DNA of 43,020 bases from a virus. Lineage: Duplodnaviria; Heunggongvirae; Uroviricota; Caudoviricetes. The stretch lies in the IMG/VR virus record IMGVR_UViG_2585427786_000006. One strand, written 5' to 3'. Numbering within the stretch: the stretch's first letter is position 1; every line of letters starts with the position of its first letter. The notes beneath the pieces were generated by a model, which saw nothing but the letters and a program-made list of their open reading frames with translations, did no database searches and was not told where the DNA came from. A program made the position numbers and the translations under genes. Shown piece by piece: positions 494 to 16,970 of the stretch.

Positions 494-2965
494 TTAAGAA
501 TCAGCCTGACTCGGGATCAGTTTTTGCCAGATAACTGAAACGTATTTTGCCTGGTAACGGGCGTCATCAAGTGCATTATGGCGCTCACCTTCGAATGGAA
601 TAGCCGTTCTGGCATCGAAGTCTATGGCTTTCCCCAGCTCAACGATTGTGCGTACATCGCGATCGTTGTAGTAACGCCACGGGCAGGGGATCCCCTGCCG
701 TTCGTATGAACGGCGCAAAATCGTGTTGTCGAAGTTGGCTCCATTTCCCCAAACCTGAACAAAAAATTCACCGGAGTTTTCGTCGATAAATTCCCGCAAT
801 TGTAACAGTGCATCATCTAACGGGATTTCATCGGTCATAATGGCAGATTGCGCTTCGCGTGATTGCTTAAGCCACCATTTAATGGTGTTCCGATCAATGA
901 CTCCGCCAGCAGTTTCCAGATCGATAGTCTTACTAAATTCCGGTCCCATATCTCCGGTTTGCGGATCGAAAAATATTGCACCTATTGAGATGATCGGGGC
1001 ATCAGGATTTTTTCCCATGGTTTCAAGGTCGATCATTAGATGGTCACACGTCCTGCTGGTGGATGTGATTTCGTGATGACCGTTCACCTTAATTGAGTGA
1101 TCTGCCGTCTCGCCAGTTTCATTATCGCTATTGTGATGCTGATTGCCGCCAGTGTTCTCCTTGTGTGGATGTTCAGCGCCTTCCATTTCCTCCGGATCAT
1201 CTTCCTGAACTTCAACCTGATATTCTTCATCGAATGTTTCTTGATATGTTGCGTCGCCCATCACCGCGCCACAATCAGGGCAGTTGCCGCCGCCGGTCTG
1301 ACCGCAGGCGGTGCAGACTTTTTCCACTTCCTGTTGCGCCACTGGTTCAGGCTGTTTCGTTTCTGGCTCGTTTTGTAACGCATTTGTGCTGTTTTGTTCC
1401 GCTTTTTGGTAGTTCCGTTCCGATTTATGCTGGTTCTGGTTCACAGAATCGCGGGTCTGGATCCCCTTAACCCATTTCGGATCATTCGGGTCACTAATCC
1501 CTTCAACAAATTCACCACGTGATGCAGCAAGCAACTTATCGGCGTCAGGCTGGCTGATATTGGCTGCCTGCATAATTTTGTTTACTTCGTCAGCGGTAAC
1601 TTTTATCGGCTCTGGTTGTTCTGAATCTTCAGCGGTATCTACATTTTGCGGTAAGCCCGTGTATGTGCCATTTTTTCGGGCAAAATATTCTTCTTTTGTG
1701 ATTTCAGTGGCGCCAGCAGCCAGTGCCTTATCCAGACCAGAAAGTTTGTTTGCGCGACCGTATTTTTCTCCGTCCTTATCTGCGAAGAGGAAATAGAACG
1801 GCCCCTCACGCTCTACAGATGGTTCAGCTTCCGGCGCGGTTTCATTTTTTGGGATATCAGATACCTCAGTTTCCACTGCATCAGTTTGTGTTTCTGATGA
1901 CTGGAGAACATCAACAGTGCCCAGGTCTGTTTCTTCATTCTCAAACACGCCCTTTGTCGTCAGGTATTCGCAGATATATTTGTTCAGTGCTATGGGATCT
2001 TTGTGAATGTCGATCGGACGCTCACGGACAAGGCCAAAAATAGTCTGGCGGTCGTAGCGAAGGGCATCAGGCTGTTTGCGCATTGATGCCGAGATACGCT
2101 TCCAGTCTTCGCGGTCGTTGTCGATAACTTCTTTTTTTGCCCAGCGATGGATGCTGCCGTCAATGTTTCCGGCATCCACATCACCAGGCCAGAGAGCGTA
2201 GGCCAGTTCGTCATCCAGTGTTTTCCATGTCTGCTTGTATTCGCGATGAATGGCAGCAATGACCGGGCTGATTTTTCCTGTTGAATTTTCAGTGTACTGT
2301 TGATTGGCTCTGGCGCGGGCGAGATCAACAACAGACGTGTATTTTCCGGTTTCCTTGCGTTCACCTTCGCGACGTTTTTTCCAGATGCGCATCTCTGCCT
2401 GAATTTCGGGCCATTTAGCACCAGGAATACATTTATGCTTAACCCACCCAATGGCGTGCAACTTAAGCTCCGGATACATGGCGTTAACTTCTGGCATTTT
2501 CATCAACGCTTCAACGATATGTCCGTCGAATGTTGCCATGTCTTCCTGCAACAATTCCTGTGCGCTAATAACCATATCAACGGTGATGTTTTCACATGTG
2601 TCGAACTTAACCATGACAGCGTTCTGTACTTCAGGGGCCAGCTTGTCAAAAGTGACGTTCATCGGATCGGATTCAGTCTCAACCGGGACAAAAGAAGCAG
2701 ACTCCTCATCCCAGCGGTTTTCCTGCATATATTCAGCATCCCATGAATCGAGGGCAGGGCGGGGTATGCCAGGTTTATCCTCGCAGACAATAAATTTATA
2801 AGCGCAGTCCTGAGCAGCCGGATAATGTTCCAGGAACTGCCAGTGAAATTTTGCTCGAGCACGGCGTTCGTCGCCAGCTTCAATGGCTGTGGCTACAGCC
2901 ACAGCGCCTTCTTCCCTTGTTGCCAGTTCGTCAGGAATAGCGGCGCAAATAAAGACTTTACTCAT
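494..2965 (-). CDS. early-left exonuclease (823 aa) with C-terminal DnaQ-like DEDDh 3'-5' exonuclease domain
   Basis: C-terminal motifs DLETMG (Exo I), WGNGANFD (Exo II), HNALDDARY (Exo III); central CxxC...CPDC zinc-ribbon-like motif; position after dicB-ydfD matches the Qin ydfE slot. Confidence 0.75.
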   Translation of the reverse strand: MSKVFICAAIPDELATREEGAVAVATAIEAGDERRARAKFHWQFLEHYPAAQDCAYKFIVCEDKPGIPRPALDSWDAEYMQENRWDEESASFVPVETESDPMNVTFDKLAPEVQNAVMVKFDTCENITVDMVISAQELLQEDMATFDGHIVEALMKMPEVNAMYPELKLHAIGWVKHKCIPGAKWPEIQAEMRIWKKRREGERKETGKYTSVVDLARARANQQYTENSTGKISPVIAAIHREYKQTWKTLDDELAYALWPGDVDAGNIDGSIHRWAKKEVIDNDREDWKRISASMRKQPDALRYDRQTIFGLVRERPIDIHKDPIALNKYICEYLTTKGVFENEETDLGTVDVLQSSETQTDAVETEVSDIPKNETAPEAEPSVEREGPFYFLFADKDGEKYGRANKLSGLDKALAAGATEITKEEYFARKNGTYTGLPQNVDTAEDSEQPEPIKVTADEVNKIMQAANISQPDADKLLAASRGEFVEGISDPNDPKWVKGIQTRDSVNQNQHKSERNYQKAEQNSTNALQNEPETKQPEPVAQQEVEKVCTACGQTGGGNCPDCGAVMGDATYQETFDEEYQVEVQEDDPEEMEGAEHPHKENTGGNQHHNSDNETGETADHSIKVNGHHEITSTSRTCDHLMIDLETMGKNPDAPIISIGAIFFDPQTGDMGPEFSKTIDLETAGGVIDRNTIKWWLKQSREAQSAIMTDEIPLDDALLQLREFIDENSGEFFVQVWGNGANFDNTILRRSYERQGIPCPWRYYNDRDVRTIVELGKAIDFDARTAIPFEGERHNALDDARYQAKYVSVIWQKLIPSQADS

Positions 2966-8665: not shown

Positions 8666-8922
8666 ATACAGCGAACTCCATTGGTTTAGTTGGATATTTA
8701 CTGTGCTGGACAAAACGGTTTGCGGGGAAATCTTAGTTAAGTAGAATGACTGCGGGTGCTTGAGGCTATCTGCCTCGGGCACGAACACCAACGGCAGGTA
8801 GAGAAAAGCCCCAGTTAACATTACGCGTCCTGCAAGACGCTTAACATTAATCTGAGGCCAATTTCATGCTAGACACATGTAGGTTAGCCTCTTACGTGCC
8901 GAAAGGCAAGGAGAAGCAGGCT

Positions 8923-9078
8923 ATGAAGCAGCAAAAGGCGATGTTAATCGCCCTGATCGTCATCTGTTTAACCGTCATAGTGACGGCACTGGTAACGAGG
9001 AAAGACCTCTGCGAGGTACGAATCCGAACCGGCCAGACGGAGGTCGCTGTCTTCACAGCTTACGAACCTGAGGAGTAA
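8923..9078 (+). CDS. hokD: Hok-family type I toxin (51 aa)
   Basis: MKQQKAMLIALIVICLTVIVTALVTRKDLCEVRIRTGQTEVAVFTAYEPEE recognised as HokD/RelF; AAGGAG RBS; in-frame upstream extension from ATG 8866. Confidence 0.8.
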   Translation: MKQQKAMLIALIVICLTVIVTALVTRKDLCEVRIRTGQTEVAVFTAYEPEE

Positions 9079-10942: not shown

Positions 10943-10959
10943 TTTTGTGGAGTAAGTTG

Positions 10960-11337
10960 ATGCGTGATATTCAGATGGTTCTTGAGCGTTGGGGGGCATG
11001 GGCGGCTAATAATCATGAAGATGTGACCTGGTCGTCCATTGCCGCCGGTTTTAAGGGATTAATTCCTTCAAAAGTAAGATCTCGTCCGCAATGCTGTGAC
11101 GATGACGCGATGATCATTTGTGAATGTATGGCTCGCCTGAAAAAAAACAACAGCGATTTACATGATTTATTGGTGGACTATTATGTCGGCGGCATGACTT
11201 TTATGGCGCTTGCACGTAAGCATGGGCGATCTGATTGTTGGGTTGGCAGGATGCTCCAGAAAGCTGAGGGCGTAGTGGAGGGCATGCTGATGGTGTTGGA
11301 TCTCCGATTGGAGATGGATGCTGATTGTTCGAAATAA
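10960..11337 (+). CDS. late-gene antiterminator Q (125 aa)
   Basis: [26 protein letters not shown]... recognised as lambdoid Q (DLP12/21-type); followed by promoter-like element and short-RNA terminator. Confidence 0.75.
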
Positions 11338-11492: not shown

Positions 11493-12017
11493 TTATTGTT
11501 TAACCCATAATAGTTCATTGACATTGAATCCCAACTTTTGAGCGGTACGCACATAGTCTGCTTTTACATTATCTGGAATAGTTTGGGTCCTTGCCAGAAT
11601 CCATAGGTATTCTCTGTTCGGACCACTGACAAGAGCATACTTATACTCATCATCCAGCTTGATTACATTATAGCCACCATAGAAGGGGCCAAAAAACGAA
11701 ACTTTCAACGCTGCAGTTTTAGTATCTCCAGTAAAGTATGCTTTACCTTCGCTCTCGCTCCATTTGTTTTTCGTTGGATCGTATCCACGGTTAAGTACGC
11801 GAATCCCTCCGTCGTTCCGTTTTTCATAAGTAGCGCTGACCTGTTCCAGACCACGTTCGAACCAGTTCTCGAGGCGAGCTATTTCATACCATTTTCCGAG
11901 GTAGCGGTTGGCGTCAAAATTTGTAATCGGCTGCACACCTTTAGGTGGTGTCGGGGCCTTACATGCTATAAGAGTGAAAGAGAGTGCAATGCCAGTCAAC
12001 ACAGGCCATAACTTCAT
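11493..12017 (-). CDS. blc: outer-membrane lipoprotein lipocalin (Blc family), 174 aa
   Basis: Lipobox LIAC; NFDANRYLGKWYEIARLENWFERGLEQVSATY...GKAYFTGDTKTAALKVSFFGPFYGGYNVIKLD recognised as Blc-like; antisense to late transcription. Confidence 0.8.
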   Translation of the reverse strand: MKLWPVLTGIALSFTLIACKAPTPPKGVQPITNFDANRYLGKWYEIARLENWFERGLEQVSATYEKRNDGGIRVLNRGYDPTKNKWSESEGKAYFTGDTKTAALKVSFFGPFYGGYNVIKLDDEYKYALVSGPNREYLWILARTQTIPDNVKADYVRTAQKLGFNVNELLWVKQ

Positions 12018-12209
12018 AATAAATCCTGTACTTTTGATAGTTGAGAGTAAGTATGAAAGATAGATGAGTACGACCGATCACTTAAAGAACTTTCCTACTA
12101 TATTAGGAATAGTCAATAACAGAAAAATTGTCAGTGATGAAGCCAGAAAGGCAATTTAGTCCGTGCACTACAAAGTTTATGTGTTAATGAATTAGTCAAG
12201 GGGGAGGAA

Positions 12210-13169
12210 ATGATAAAAAAACCTGTGATTGGGATCAGCGGTTGTTTGGGCGGTTCTGCTGTTCGTTTTGATGGTGGTCACAAAAGAGATGACTTTTTAA
12301 TGGACAAATTAGTGGAATGGGTAACATTCAGACCAGTATGTCCGGAAATGGCTATAGGGCTGCCAGTTCCGCGTCCTGCTCTACGACTTGTGCGCTCGAA
12401 GCAAGGAAATATACGGATGTGTTTCAGCCACGACCAGAATGAGGATGTGACAGAGAGAATGACAGAGTTTAGTCGTTCTTATATGGACAAATTAAAGGAT
12501 GTATCGGGGTTTGTGGTTTGTGCTAAATCTCCCAGCTGTGGCATGGAGCGCGTGCGTGTCTATGATGAAAATGGTAATCGAGGTCGTAAAGATGGAGTGG
12601 GACTATTTACGAGCACTTTGATGGAAAAGTTTTCCTGGCTACCGGTTGAAGAGGATGGGCGATTACATGATCCAGTGCTTCGTGAGAATTTTATTGAAAG
12701 AGTTTTTGCTTTGCATGAGCTCAATCACCTTTACAAGGAGAAATTATCAAGAAGAGAGTTATTAGCTTTTCATAGTCGTTATAAGCTTCAGTTGTTGGCG
12801 CATAGCCAGGCAGGCTATAAAGATATGGGACCATTTGTGGCTGCAATACACGAGTGGGCGGACCTTGAATCATACTTTGAGGTGTATCGTGATAATCTGA
12901 TGGCGATTCTCAGAAAACCAGCATCACGTAAAAATCACACGAATGTGCTGATGCATATACAGGGGTATTTTAGTAATTACTTAAGTACACGCCAGCGTAA
13001 AGAGTTGAGCGAGGTTATACTTAACTATCGCTTTGGCACATTGCCTCTTCTTGCGCCGTTGACTCTGCTGAAGCATTATCTGGGTGAGTATCCTAATGAT
13101 TACTTGCTTACACAGAATTACTTCGATCCCTATCCGGAAGAACTGGCTCTAAGACTGATGGTGAATTAA
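12210..13169 (+). CDS. DUF523 (TudS-like, Cys-rich)-DUF1722 (YbgA-like) fusion protein, 319 aa
   Basis: N-terminal GISGCLGG...CPEMAIG...CAKSPSCG motifs; C-terminal YbgA-like region; GGGGGAGG RBS. Confidence 0.55.
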   Translation: MIKKPVIGISGCLGGSAVRFDGGHKRDDFLMDKLVEWVTFRPVCPEMAIGLPVPRPALRLVRSKQGNIRMCFSHDQNEDVTERMTEFSRSYMDKLKDVSGFVVCAKSPSCGMERVRVYDENGNRGRKDGVGLFTSTLMEKFSWLPVEEDGRLHDPVLRENFIERVFALHELNHLYKEKLSRRELLAFHSRYKLQLLAHSQAGYKDMGPFVAAIHEWADLESYFEVYRDNLMAILRKPASRKNHTNVLMHIQGYFSNYLSTRQRKELSEVILNYRFGTLPLLAPLTLLKHYLGEYPNDYLLTQNYFDPYPEELALRLMVN

Positions 13170-13575
13170 CTGTATGCGATATCATCTGAAAGTGATGAGT
13201 TCCTGTATGCAGGATATTTACAATCGTAAAAACTACGCTATGATGCTCATAGTGTCAGTTTTTATAAAAATCCTGTTCACGCTAAAGAAAACATTGAGAT
13301 GCAATTTAATGTTGGTAAACATACCAGCCCCAAACGATTTTATTCAATCTGTTTTTATATGAAGATATTTCAAGTGAATATTAAGAGTATATAATATTAT
13401 TATTGCACGCAGCTATTATAATATAACAGATTAGTTTAATGATTTGTTTTTTGTGAGTTAAACACATGGTTTTATAGTTGTGATGCAATGAGATTTTCCT
13501 TATTGTTGAACTGGCGAATATTGATTTTCCACCTATACTTACCTGGTGTAACCCCAATGATATCAGGTGGATAAT

Positions 13576-14289
13576 ATGCCATACATATGTTCTATCATTT
13601 TGGTGTTGAACTCGTTTGGTGTCCGAATTGGTAAAGAAGATATTTTGTTTAAAAAAGGAAATGCTGTCCTCATTGAATACAATTTAAAAGATCTTTTTTC
13701 GTCAAATACAGATCATCTAATGATCGTAGATGTTGAGGAGAAAACAGTTAATGATTTCTTTAAAAACTACACACTCTCACCTTTTTCTGTAAGAAGGTTT
13801 TATCCGTCATACTTGATAGTAGAATGTGAAGATTTTTCATTGTTAAAGAACTTGGTTGCATGCTTGAATTGTGATAGCAAAACCGTGGATGTAGTTAGAA
13901 ATCAAATATCACTTGCATGTCTTGCTGTCTTATCTTCAGAGAAAATAGTGCAAAGTTTTTTGTTCGGAAGTCTTAATAGCTTAGGTTGTAAAGTTAAGGC
14001 TATTATTCACTCGGATATCTCAGCGTCATGGAGACTTTGTGATATATCTTCAAGATTATATATGAGCGAGAGTTTGTTAAAAAGAAAATTAAAAGACGAA
14101 GGATTATCGTTTAGTAAATTAATTCTTGAAGAACGAATGATGATGGCGCAAAGATTATTGATCTACAGTAACCATACTGTCGGCAAGGTGGCGGGAATAT
14201 GCGGGTATGACAATGCATCATATTTTGTAAGTGTTTTTAGAAGATATTTTGGTGTGCCTCCGCACCAATATTTATCAAGATTTTCTTAG
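13576..14289 (+). CDS. AraC-family transcriptional regulator, AppY/GadX-like (237 aa)
   Basis: C-terminal AraC HTH (LCDISSRLYMSESLLKRKLKDEGLSFSKL...ICGYDNASYFVSVFRRYFGVPPHQY); N-terminus resembles AppY; AT-rich gene and flanks. Confidence 0.75.
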   Translation: MPYICSIILVLNSFGVRIGKEDILFKKGNAVLIEYNLKDLFSSNTDHLMIVDVEEKTVNDFFKNYTLSPFSVRRFYPSYLIVECEDFSLLKNLVACLNCDSKTVDVVRNQISLACLAVLSSEKIVQSFLFGSLNSLGCKVKAIIHSDISASWRLCDISSRLYMSESLLKRKLKDEGLSFSKLILEERMMMAQRLLIYSNHTVGKVAGICGYDNASYFVSVFRRYFGVPPHQYLSRFS

Positions 14290-14356
14290 AAGATATGATG
14301 TGATGGCATTTTATAAAGTTATTTTTTGAAGTGTAAGATTATACGATATTTTTAGC

Positions 14357-14389
14357 TACGCCAGAATAATTGCTGGCGTTTTTCTTTTT
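14357..14389 (+). terminator. intrinsic terminator after the AraC-family gene
   Basis: CGCCAG-AATAATT-GCTGGCG hairpin then TTTTTCTTTTT. Confidence 0.5.
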
Positions 14390-14479: not shown

Positions 14480-14695
14480 ATGAAATCCATGGATAAGTTA
14501 ACAACGGGCATCGCCTACAGCACCTCTGCAGGCAGTGCTGGCTACTGGTTTTTACAGTTGCTCGATAAAGTCACACCCTCACAGTGGGCGGCAATAGGTG
14601 TATTGGGTAGTCTGGTATTTGGCATGCTGACGTATCTGACAAACCTTTATTTCAAGATTAAAGAAGACAGGCGTAAGGCTGCGAGAGGAGAGTAA
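14480..14695 (+). CDS. pinholin, phage-21 S-type with dual start (71/68 aa)
   Basis: [71 protein letters not shown]; GGAGGTGAGG RBS; Met1 and Met4 starts. Confidence 0.8.
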
Positions 14696-14699
14696 GACA

Positions 14700-14918
14700 A
14701 TGACTAAAAACTATGAACTGATTGTGAAAGGGACCCGCAATTTTGAGAATAAAGTTACGGTAATCTTAACGTTACAGGACAAAGAACGTTTTGCCGGTGA
14801 AATTTTTGATCTGAACATCAACCTTGAGCGACTTGAAGGAGCTGGTTTGGATTATTATGAAGTTACTGCGGTAAAACATGCCAAACAGTTCTTGAGAGAT
14901 TTGGCTGAAAAAATATAA
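14700..14918 (+). CDS. hypothetical protein (72 aa) inserted between holin and endolysin
   Basis: ATG 5 nt after holin stop, SD GGAGAG inside holin 3' end; no family recognised. Confidence 0.5.
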   Translation: MTKNYELIVKGTRNFENKVTVILTLQDKERFAGEIFDLNINLERLEGAGLDYYEVTAVKHAKQFLRDLAEKI

Positions 14919-14936
14919 AGCGGCATTACTGCCGCT
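14905..14936 (-). terminator. hairpin terminator oriented for the antisense 98-aa gene
   Basis: AGCGGCA-TTAC-TGCCGCT stem-loop between convergent stops, U-rich tract on the minus-strand side only. Confidence 0.4.
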
Positions 14937-14942
14937 TAGAAA

Positions 14943-15239
14943 TTATTCAATGTCTGGTAGCTTATCAAAGATTTCGGATACTCTTATATTTGTCATATAA
15001 GCAAATTGAGATTCTGCCAGCTCTTTGGGTGATTTTCCCGCTTTTTCTGAGCCAAAAATTGTTTCTAAAGCCAGCATGTTATATTTGAGAACCTCTTCTC
15101 GAGTTTTACCTGATAATTTTGCGGTAACAGCAATATAAAAAGGCAACACTTTATCCAGAAGGTCGTTGTGTTTTGTCAGTTGTGGTAATACCACATCAAG
15201 TTGCTTACTGATTGGTTTGAATGGATCTATACCGTTCAT
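14943..15239 (-). CDS. hypothetical protein (98 aa), antisense gene inside the lysis cassette
   Basis: ATG preceded by AAGGGA; non-repetitive protein MNGIDPFKPISKQLDVVLPQLTKHNDLLDK...; candidate TTAAGC-N17-GATACT promoter in 15270-15330. Confidence 0.5.
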   Translation of the reverse strand: MNGIDPFKPISKQLDVVLPQLTKHNDLLDKVLPFYIAVTAKLSGKTREEVLKYNMLALETIFGSEKAGKSPKELAESQFAYMTNIRVSEIFDKLPDIE

Positions 15240-15366
15240 AGTTACATTCCCTTATCAGAGGTAATCAGCCATCCCCCCTTTATTACACACGCCAGTATCC
15301 ACCACTGACGGGCTGAGTGCTTAACATATCTAGAGATTAGAAACTGATAAATCCTGATAAATATCC

Positions 15367-16394
<1,028 letters not shown>

Positions 16395-16757
16395 ATTAAT
16401 ATTAAATCGGATTATTTTTAGCGCTGAATGTGAAATTTAAATAAAAAGGACTCTTCCATGAGTCAAAATCCTTGAAATCTTAAGGGTAAGATAAAAGGTC
16501 ATTAGACAGAATGACACGTTTTATTAATAAATAAAGCTATTGTTTCATTCGTGTGTTTTTCTTTACAAAAGTAATCCTTGCTATGGTTGGTTAATCATGC
16601 GTTAATGGTGTTCTGGTTTGTTACAAAATTATCTGAAGCAGTCATTGTTATAATTTTATTATTTGTACCTCTTGAGATTTCCTTGTTGGTTTTTCTCTCT
16701 GATATTTTTTTTCGGACCATTCTGCCCAAGGGCTAACTTCTTCAAAAGGTAATAATG

Positions 16758-16970
16758 ATGTCTAACAAAATGACTGGTTTAGTGAAATGGTTTAACCCTG
16801 AAAAAGGTTTTGGTTTCATCACGCCGAAAGATGGTAGCAAAGATGTGTTTGTCCATTTCTCAGCTATTCAGAGCAACGATTTCAAAACGTTAACTGAGAA
16901 TCAGGAAGTCGAATTTGGTATTGAGAACGGACCTAAAGGCCCCGCGGCTGTTCATGTTGTGGCACTTTGA
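16758..16970 (+). CDS. cspI: cold-shock protein CspI-like (70 aa)
   Basis: [39 protein letters not shown]... with RNP motifs; long AT-rich 5' leader upstream. Confidence 0.85.

Follow-up and report, generated by a model that had tools for sequence, protein, structure and literature searches.

What lies between the holin gene and the endolysin gene of a phage 21-type lysis cassette, and what is it for? The question is raised by a stretch of viral DNA of 43,020 nucleotides (Caudoviricetes; IMG/VR record IMGVR_UViG_2585427786_000006), hereafter the window, in which the stop codon of the pinholin gene S and the start codon of the endolysin gene R are 671 bp apart. A sequence-only reading of this DNA had put the gap at about 670 bp, had found in it two convergent genes, here named ORF1 and ORF2, and had suggested a toxin/antidote, lysis-timing or exclusion function for the pair. 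Our analysis indicates that the spacer is probably composed of a short form of the gene ydfR and an antisense moron cassette, the latter belonging to a large modular family in which a conserved promoter and leader are combined with exchangeable cargo genes.

Much of the locus is ordinary. It belongs to two known kinds, the DUF1327/YdfR family, here in its usual place, and the class of the morons. The moron concept dates from 2000, and the morons of lambdoid phages were reportedly described by Juhala et al. in that year. New is the observation that more than 100 cassettes, including the morons of phages HK022 and ES18, carry a common, portable module of promoter and leader whose covarying hairpin has no counterpart in Rfam. 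In the literature examined, which did not extend to the original moron papers, such a module common to many classical and new morons appears to be undescribed, as does the recurrence of DUF1327 proteins as late-strand partners of the cassettes.

A short ydfR and an antisense cargo gene

ORF1 (14700-14918, plus strand) encodes a protein of 72 amino acid residues. Its ATG is located 4 nt past the stop codon of S (TAA, 14693-14695) and its Shine-Dalgarno (SD) sequence, GAGGAGAG, lies inside the end of S. The gene is translationally coupled to the pinholin gene, as the sequence-only reading had recognised, and hence would be made alongside the lysis genes. The protein scored 92.3 bits with the Pfam profile DUF1327 (PF07041; gathering cut-off 25), with residues 1-72 aligned to positions 1-72 of the 93 in the profile, and shares 58% identity and 81% similarity with residues 1-72 of YdfR from the Qin prophage of Escherichia coli K-12. 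The earlier statement that neither protein of the spacer matches a family was thus wrong for ORF1; ORF2 matches PHROG 25324, a family that carries no assigned function. A comparison of ORF1 with a copy from Cronobacter (79% nucleotide identity) yielded a ratio of non-synonymous to synonymous substitution rates (dN/dS) of 0.162, which identifies ORF1 as a genuine gene under purifying selection.

Searches of ORF1 against PDB profiles and NCBIfam gave no match. In the AlphaFold2 model, which reached a predicted local distance difference test score (pLDDT) of 84, the protein adopts a beta3-alpha arrangement. The protein Dip of phage phiKZ and double-stranded RNA-binding domains can be treated as leads only, since their scores are low for a domain of 72 residues and are equalled by RNase-H-like fragments. 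Unlike ORF1, the double-stranded RNA-binding domains have an extra N-terminal helix. Dip reportedly binds the scaffold region of RNase E and not the catalytic domain.

DUF1327 proteins share an N-terminal domain of about 70 residues, which is followed by variable tails and gives total lengths between 69 and 118 aa. YdfR of K-12 Qin occupies the same slot as ORF1, between an S21-type holin and an R21-type endolysin, and is a protein of 103 residues with a helical tail, whereas ORF1 ends after 72 residues at a stop codon provided by the terminator of the antisense gene: the last three codons (EKI) and the stop codon are the complement of the U-tract of that terminator. In Qin, with the gene order essQ-ydfR-rrrQ-rzpQ, the antisense gene is absent and ydfR overlaps rrrQ. 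The order S-ydfR-R is also annotated in mEp460, Perceval, vB_EcoM-606R7, 2H10 and many other records. The premise of the sequence-only reading, uninterrupted S, R and Rz genes in 21-type cassettes, hence does not hold for the examined relatives of the cassette. Of 5,426 complete E. coli genomes, 2,079 have a match to the DUF1327 part of the spacer. By these sequence matches, ydfR is a common passenger of lambdoid late operons and S-ydfR-R the usual layout of such cassettes.

The sole functional data found for DUF1327/YdfR, and the first biochemistry of the family, point to RNase E and RNA. In a two-hybrid assay, a clone of exactly residues 1-72 of YdfR bound the N-terminal, catalytic half of RNase E as well as RNase G, and full-length, Strep-tagged YdfR co-purified with Rne(1-598) and with RNA (nucleic acid resistant to DNase; Göpel et al. 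2026, PMC13232886). In the same study, overexpression of ydfR in K-12 changed few transcripts and caused no growth defect. ORF1 corresponds to the RNase E-binding part of K-12 YdfR and, considering the identity and similarity of both sequences, may likewise bind RNase E and RNA.

ORF2 (15239-14943, minus strand; 98 aa) has a ribosome-binding site of its own, AAGGGA (15253-15248), 8 nt ahead of its ATG, in accordance with the sequence-only reading. The protein matches PHROG 25324 with an E value of 7e-61. Sixteen homologues of 92-133 aa were found in E. coli, Cronobacter, Serratia and other enterobacteria; 15 of them are full-length and share identities of 59-85%. With a dN/dS of 0.079 against the Cronobacter copy (79% nucleotide identity), ORF2 is likewise a genuine gene under purifying selection. 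The AlphaFold2 model (pLDDT 85) shows four helices and the protein is predicted to be soluble; we regard it as a predicted cytoplasmic helical protein of a family restricted to enterobacterial prophages. In the PDB sequence search the sole marginal match was Reg576 (E 0.11). Neither ORF1 nor ORF2 matched an entry of PADLOC-DB 2.0 at E <= 1, and by this comparison the locus is not a known anti-phage defence system.

Between the two convergent genes, an intrinsic terminator of ORF2 extends from 14937 to 14908 on the minus strand. It consists of the hairpin AAGCGGCA-GTAA-TGCCGCTT (14918-14937) with a GC-rich stem of 8 bp, followed on the minus strand only by the U-tract TATATTTTTT. The hairpin was picked up by a terminator scan (4 sites against 0.8 expected), and RNA folding gave z-scores of -4.5 for the minus and -2.6 for the plus strand. 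The one-sided hairpin of the sequence-only reading was hence recovered; the positions given there, 14905-14936, include the U-tract. The same scan detected no plus-strand terminator between S and R.

ORF2 shows several of the features by which a moron is recognised. Besides its own terminator, it brings extra DNA to a conserved junction. The homology with mEp460 ends at about 14860 and returns 17 nt before R, and that with Perceval and 2H10 returns at 15290. In the alignment with mEp460, K-12 Qin and Perceval, similarity stops at about 14860 and starts again at 15290-15351. The base composition also differs, with 35-40% GC in the spacer and 49-54% in S and R. While the ydfR half is common, the full 667-bp spacer occurred at >=99% identity in 57 of the 5,426 E. 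coli genomes and at 96% in phage Evi; judged by these counts, the antisense gene is a rarer addition to the S-R spacer.

The pair is mobile. In Cronobacter an ORF2 homologue of 85% identity is convergent with a DUF1327 gene of 71-72 aa that ends in ...LAEKI*, and both are placed behind a complete, unrelated lysis cassette. The DNA shared with the window forms one block of 611 bp (79% identity; window 14708-15316), so the pair moves as a unit, and since the Cronobacter pair has the short ydfR as well, the short form is a conserved state and no accident of the window locus. Other ORF2 homologues are located in tail-gene clusters, at the junctions of the tape-measure gene (H) with gpM, of gpM with gpL and of gpI with gpJ, and one precedes a different holin. 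All of them run antisense to their neighbours, convergent with a small late-strand gene and preceded by the same leader. The BLAST similarity to the tail-cluster copies reaches about 120 nt upstream of ORF2.

A cassette family with one promoter-like block and leader

This upstream element was detected by BLAST in 108 phage records. In those records whose annotation was examined, the leader precedes genes annotated as moron or hypothetical. It is present before gp23 of HK022, which is convergent with gp22 at the gpI/gpJ junction, before gp25 of ES18, convergent with gp24 at the gpM/gpL junction, before gp33 of SPN3UB, convergent with gp32, and before gp70 of mEp043, convergent with gp69 and located behind Rz. 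The HK022 and ES18 morons resemble the window locus in several respects: both are AT-rich extra DNA at a junction of the late operon and combine an antisense small gene that has its own terminator and the same leader with a convergent small late-strand gene, which in ES18 (gp24) is also a DUF1327 gene. They differ from it in the cargo family and in the site, I/J or M/L instead of S/R. The slot between ydfR and R itself is variable. Perceval (locus L003, about 2560-2900, minus strand) and 2H10 (L008, about 2300-2620, minus strand) hold other antisense ORFs there, starting with MQKEVFINITADC... and MDYTNLPKQ..., respectively, which carry the same promoter and leader block and were left unannotated in the public records.

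More than 120 loci emerged from pattern scans of IMG/VR and were filtered to 80 unique cassettes; addition of a relaxed motif and later scans raised the number of unique cassettes to 122. In a scan of one genome per species, the leader was found in 22 species of Enterobacterales, with the genera Enterobacter, Klebsiella, Citrobacter, Pantoea, Serratia, Erwinia, Kluyvera, Leclercia, Buttiauxella, Atlantibacter, Phytobacter and Dryocola. In E. coli the canonical leader is uncommon (59 of 5,426 genomes by blastn) and always lies in unannotated DNA.

The architecture of the module, read in the sense of the cargo gene, was derived from a consensus of 72 cassettes and from an alignment. Tail-cluster cassettes start with a hairpin that represents a late-strand terminator (AGCCACC-loop-GGTGGCTTTTT). 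The window copy is without this terminator, because the start codon of R abuts the next block. This promoter-like block (15317-15366, minus strand, in the window, where it holds an ATCAGGAT block) contains the partly palindromic ACTGnTnGAATATCAGG, then TGTTGCT, and then AACCCTGGTTAAnGT or TATGTT, a hexamer of the form T-A-x-G-x-T whose end lies 7-8 nt ahead of the leader. The leader consists of UCAGCC, a hairpin of 8 bp, about 18 nt leading to an SD-like GGAGGG, AUGGCUGAUUACCUCUG, the real SD (AAGGA) and the cargo ATG, which follows 20-25 nt past GGCUGAU. LexA, sigma-32 and sigma-54 sites were considered for the upstream block by eye and rejected, since the spacings do not fit (CTG-N9-CAG instead of N10 in the case of LexA).

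The leader of the window (15316-15240, minus strand; about 75 nt) is intact. In stem P1, UCAGCC (15316-15311) pairs with GGCUGA (15270-15265), and the two strands enclose the 8-bp hairpin P2 (15310-15290). An SD-like G-run and a mini-ORF, ATGGCTGATTACCTCTGA (MADYL*), lie at 15272-15255, with CCUCU at 15261-15257. The window thus contains the characters of the family leader, UCAGCC...GGCUGA around an 8-bp hairpin, UUACCUCUG, an SD and the cargo ATG, and its positions 15316-15237 align in register with 76 other leaders. The mini-ORF is opened by the AUG inside GGGAUGGCUGAU; a functional peptide is unlikely, considering that its length varies among the copies and that the nucleotide-level conservation includes wobble positions. 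As the length of the mini-ORF is not conserved, the conservation acts at the level of RNA or DNA.

Across the 77 leaders, P2 is paired in 98.4% of the cases, whereas control registers slid by 1-3 columns give 29-49%. Three of its pairs change on both sides in 12-16 sequences each (AU 59, CG 13, GC 1 and UA 1; GC 63 and AU 12; UA 54 and CG 16), a fourth does so in one sequence, and a further pair varies between UG, UA and CG, one side at a time. RNAalifold recovered P1 and P2 unguided. P1 had been fixed by the first search pattern; a rescan anchored outside P1 found it nearly invariant, with wobble or end-pair variants only. Rfam contained nothing similar to the window leader at E <= 10, and a search of Rfam 15 with the canonical leaders of HK022, ES18, SPN3UB and mEp043 likewise returned nothing. 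The anti-small RNAs AsxR and AgvB of enterohaemorrhagic E. coli (EHEC) were rejected as counterparts of the leader because they are located at the PR' site upstream of S. The leader is a candidate regulatory RNA.

Between the leader and the terminator the cassettes are exchangeable. BLASTP clustering of the first 80 cassettes resulted in 18 cargo families, nearly all without a Pfam family; one is DUF1883. Among the families observed in the IMG/VR loci L033, L089 and L060 are a DUF1883 protein (E 4e-27), a 177-aa Cys-rich protein of the CxxCxxCC type and proteins of 210 aa that fall into no known family, all of which are candidates for functions expressed in lysogeny. The cargo genes are antisense to the late genes: 298 of 326 large flanking ORFs are on the opposite strand and 28 on the same strand, and the window follows this pattern, with its cargo gene on the minus strand and S, ydfR, R and Rz on the plus strand.

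The convergent partners recur as well. Short DUF1327 genes accompany the cassettes in the window, in Evi and in Cronobacter, and in tail clusters they are represented by ES18 gp24 (31 bits) and by locus L047 (36 bits; cut-off 25). Other recurring partners are a 93-aa FxVxFP...RAExxA type and proteins starting with MTLEQRVEALE. BLASTP and hhalign, with three partner sequences in the profile, revealed no kinship of the 93-aa tail-cluster partner with DUF1327. The ORF2 family is combined with DUF1327 or with the 93-aa type, DUF1327 with cargo of the ORF2 or the ES18 gp25 family, and the largest partner cluster with at least 10 cargo families. This promiscuity suggests conserved ends around an exchangeable middle rather than co-evolving cognate pairs. 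In many partner ORFs the N-terminus MTLEQRVEALE is identical and is preceded in frame by NRYHDKAERRE, and some (L021, L061, L142 and others) are weakly similar to the tail-tip domain PF09327 (E about 1e-3). These features point to a left boundary of the cassette that is conserved and perhaps stems from late-gene fragments. Taken together, the results on the family place YdfR among the components of late-operon accessory cassettes instead of the lysis genes.

Expression of the cassette and competing explanations

The ribosome-binding site and the strand-specific terminator of ORF2 fit the architecture expected of a gene that is expressed from a repressed prophage. In the lysogen, only the cargo gene would be transcribed, from its own promoter and as far as 14908, where the terminator would insulate the locus. 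The antiterminator gene Q (10945-11337, plus strand; PF06530 Phage_antitermQ, E 8e-51) is the presumed source of the late transcription that would read through the locus. Upon induction, polymerase modified by Q and coming from upstream of S would ignore the terminator, express ydfR, cross the cargo gene and its leader in antisense, and reach R and Rz. This passage would be expected to silence the cargo gene, either by transcriptional interference or by antisense pairing. By analogy with the ant moron of P22 (PMC2629481), it may also modulate the amount of R/Rz message relative to S.

Our best guess for ORF2, held with low confidence, is an accessory protein expressed in the lysogen. By analogy with the characterised morons, its most likely class would be a function of benefit to the lysogen, such as exclusion of other phages or modulation of the host. 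The at least 18 cargo families of the first 80 cassettes are nearly all uncharacterised and belong to the class that usually yields functions in exclusion, defence and host modulation. The leader offers a searchable tag for small genes that prophages probably express in lysogeny.

Several observations weigh against the interpretation as a moron cassette with its own promoter and structured leader. A simple consensus scan found no sigma-70-like promoter upstream of ORF2 (minus strand, 15240-15366), and what is left of the candidate promoter of the sequence-only reading is a weak TTTATC-17-TATGTT (-35-like element at 15351-15346, -10-like element at 15328-15323, minus strand) within the block conserved in the family. 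The nearly invariant P1 showed no covariation and is compatible with pairing only. For a possible pseudoknot P3, between the SD-like run and CCUCU, support is modest: the positions are paired in 92%, with AU, GU and GC at one pair, and leave 16 cells unpaired. The window leader taken alone is predicted to fold into P1 and P2 with a z-score of +0.28, no better than shuffled sequence. ORF2 itself yielded no relative in Pfam, NCBIfam, PADLOC or PDB and no informative structural neighbour from which a role could be read. In 107 of 122 cassettes (88%) the cargo stop codon lies near the end of a convergent late-strand ORF of at least 45 aa, compared to 58% at random positions of the same loci, and the enrichment of partners is hence only modest.

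The conservation of the promoter block, moreover, could partly reflect a function of the other strand. In SPN3UB (locus L021, 1424-1505, late strand) the complement of the promoter block and the late-strand terminator resembles isrK, the Hfq-binding small RNA of Gifsy-1, and an equivalent block is present in most tail-cluster cassettes; the promoter block may double as a unit similar to a small RNA on this strand. The score of 22 bits (E 0.0055 on 221 nt) falls short of the gathering score of 50, and the match is not a member of the isrK family. As an identity for the leader, isrK was rejected: the similarity is below threshold and on the opposite strand, and the matching terminator part is missing from the window copy.

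A more far-reaching proposal is that the leader represents a new class of cis-regulatory RNA that gates the accessory genes of prophages, with the convergent late-strand partner as its controller in trans: YdfR/DUF1327 would bind the leader-bearing mRNAs and hand them to RNase E at the lytic switch. The nested two-stem fold would possibly be closed by the pseudoknot, which would sequester the decoy SD and the mini-ORF. We consider this rather unlikely. If true, it would explain the joint travel of the conserved leader and a small late-strand gene around exchangeable cargo.

The position between S and R could alternatively be functional in itself. As a lysis-timing module, YdfR and possibly ORF2 would tune the triggering of the holin or the supply of endolysin. 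The exact, S-coupled position of ydfR in very many prophages agrees with this proposal, and a genetic screen, as cited by Göpel et al., ties ydfR to envelope integrity (PMC13232886). An effect on the ratio of R to S is conceivable by analogy with the ant moron of P22 (immI), an independently regulated late-operon insert with antisense transcription that is thought to affect the read-through into downstream genes and for which such a role in tailspike expression was proposed (PMC2629481). The window cassette is likewise an antisense insert inside a late operon. The repressors Mnt and Arc and the sar antisense RNA of immI are absent here, and both loci share no sequence relationship. A lysis-timing module is nonetheless improbable. 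Short DUF1327 genes are found in tail clusters far from any lysis gene (ES18 gp24, L047), the Cronobacter copy lies behind a complete and different lysis cassette, the ORF2 homologues are mostly located in tail clusters, and the activity shown by experiment for YdfR is binding of RNase E and RNA, not of membrane or holin (PMC13232886).

The conserved parts might also serve recombination only. In this case, promoter, leader and the conserved 5' part of the partner gene would act as DNA homology arms by which phages swap the middle segment, and the hairpin would have no function as RNA. Such linkers would account for conserved ends around a variable middle and for the breakpoints of inter-phage homology at the edges of the block, and P1 and the GGGATGGCTGATTACCTC block are indeed conserved as sequence and not by covariation. 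Homology arms alone, however, do not predict that P2 stays paired through many double substitutions (AU/CG/GC/UA, GC/AU and UA/CG), nor that the block always keeps a fixed distance and orientation upstream of the SD and the start codon. A purely recombinational role is hence quite unlikely, and the roles as linker and as RNA are not mutually exclusive.

Very unlikely is the toxin-antidote pair of the sequence-only reading, in which one small protein would harm the cell or an invading phage and its convergent partner, expressed in the other of the two states of lysogeny and lysis, would neutralise it: the joint transfer of both genes between E. coli and Cronobacter in the 611-bp block, a convergent layout whose differential expression would permit a switch, and the Hok-type toxin gene elsewhere in the prophage, which demonstrates that such modules occur here, are outweighed by the promiscuity of the partners (one type with at least 10 cargo families), by about 2,000 E. 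coli genomes in which ydfR has no antisense companion, by the overexpression of ydfR in K-12 without a growth defect (PMC13232886), by the lack of any toxin or antitoxin match of ORF1 and ORF2 in PADLOC, Pfam and NCBIfam, and by the convergent genes and freely mixed partners and cargo where a type II system would consist of a co-transcribed, co-evolving cognate pair.

The surrounding prophage

The window is an E. coli lambdoid prophage that occupies the Qin position; in strain HUE1, an identical copy adjoins rspAB and is followed by cspI, ynfN and gnsB. The lysis cassette is of the phage 21 type. S (14480-14695, plus strand; 71 aa) encodes an S21-type pinholin with a dual start, M1/M4 (PF04971 Phage_holin_2_1, E 2.3e-34; PHROG holin). 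R (15367-15900, plus strand; 177 aa) encodes a signal-anchor-release (SAR) endolysin with a hydrophobic N-terminus (PF00959, E 2e-23; PHROG endolysin). The following gene (15897-16394, plus strand) encodes an Rz-type spanin (DUF2514; PF10721, E 4e-38) and is annotated as rzpQ in an identical genome copy.

S is preceded by a strong terminator on the plus strand, ACGCCAG-loop-CTGGCGTTTTTCTTTTT, at 14358-14379. The surrounding positions 14321-14387 (plus strand) have weak, sub-threshold Rfam matches to the Hfq-binding small RNAs Hrs12 (20.5 bits) and Esr41 (15.4 bits), and could be the end of a small RNA. This PR'-proximal moron site upstream of S is where the convergent anti-small RNAs AsxR and AgvB were mapped in EHEC prophages (Tree et al. 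2014). Between Q and S, a cargo island of accessory genes (11493-14289) occupies the slot of the stx genes in Stx phages. It encodes a Blc-like lipocalin (minus strand), a YbgA-like protein (2-thiouracil desulfurase / DUF1722) and a regulator of the AraC family of 240 aa, with a very low GC content (about 32-35%).

The Hok/Gef-family toxin gene lies in the early region (8866-9078, plus strand; PF01848, E 3e-23). A cspI-like cold-shock gene (16755-16970, plus strand; PF00313) is located directly after Rz, as in K-12 Qin. Lastly, an ORF in the +1 frame is embedded in Rz (16048-16344, plus strand) and contains a lipoprotein-box-like LTSC motif. It is probably the gene for the o-spanin Rz1, the counterpart of rzoQ in K-12.

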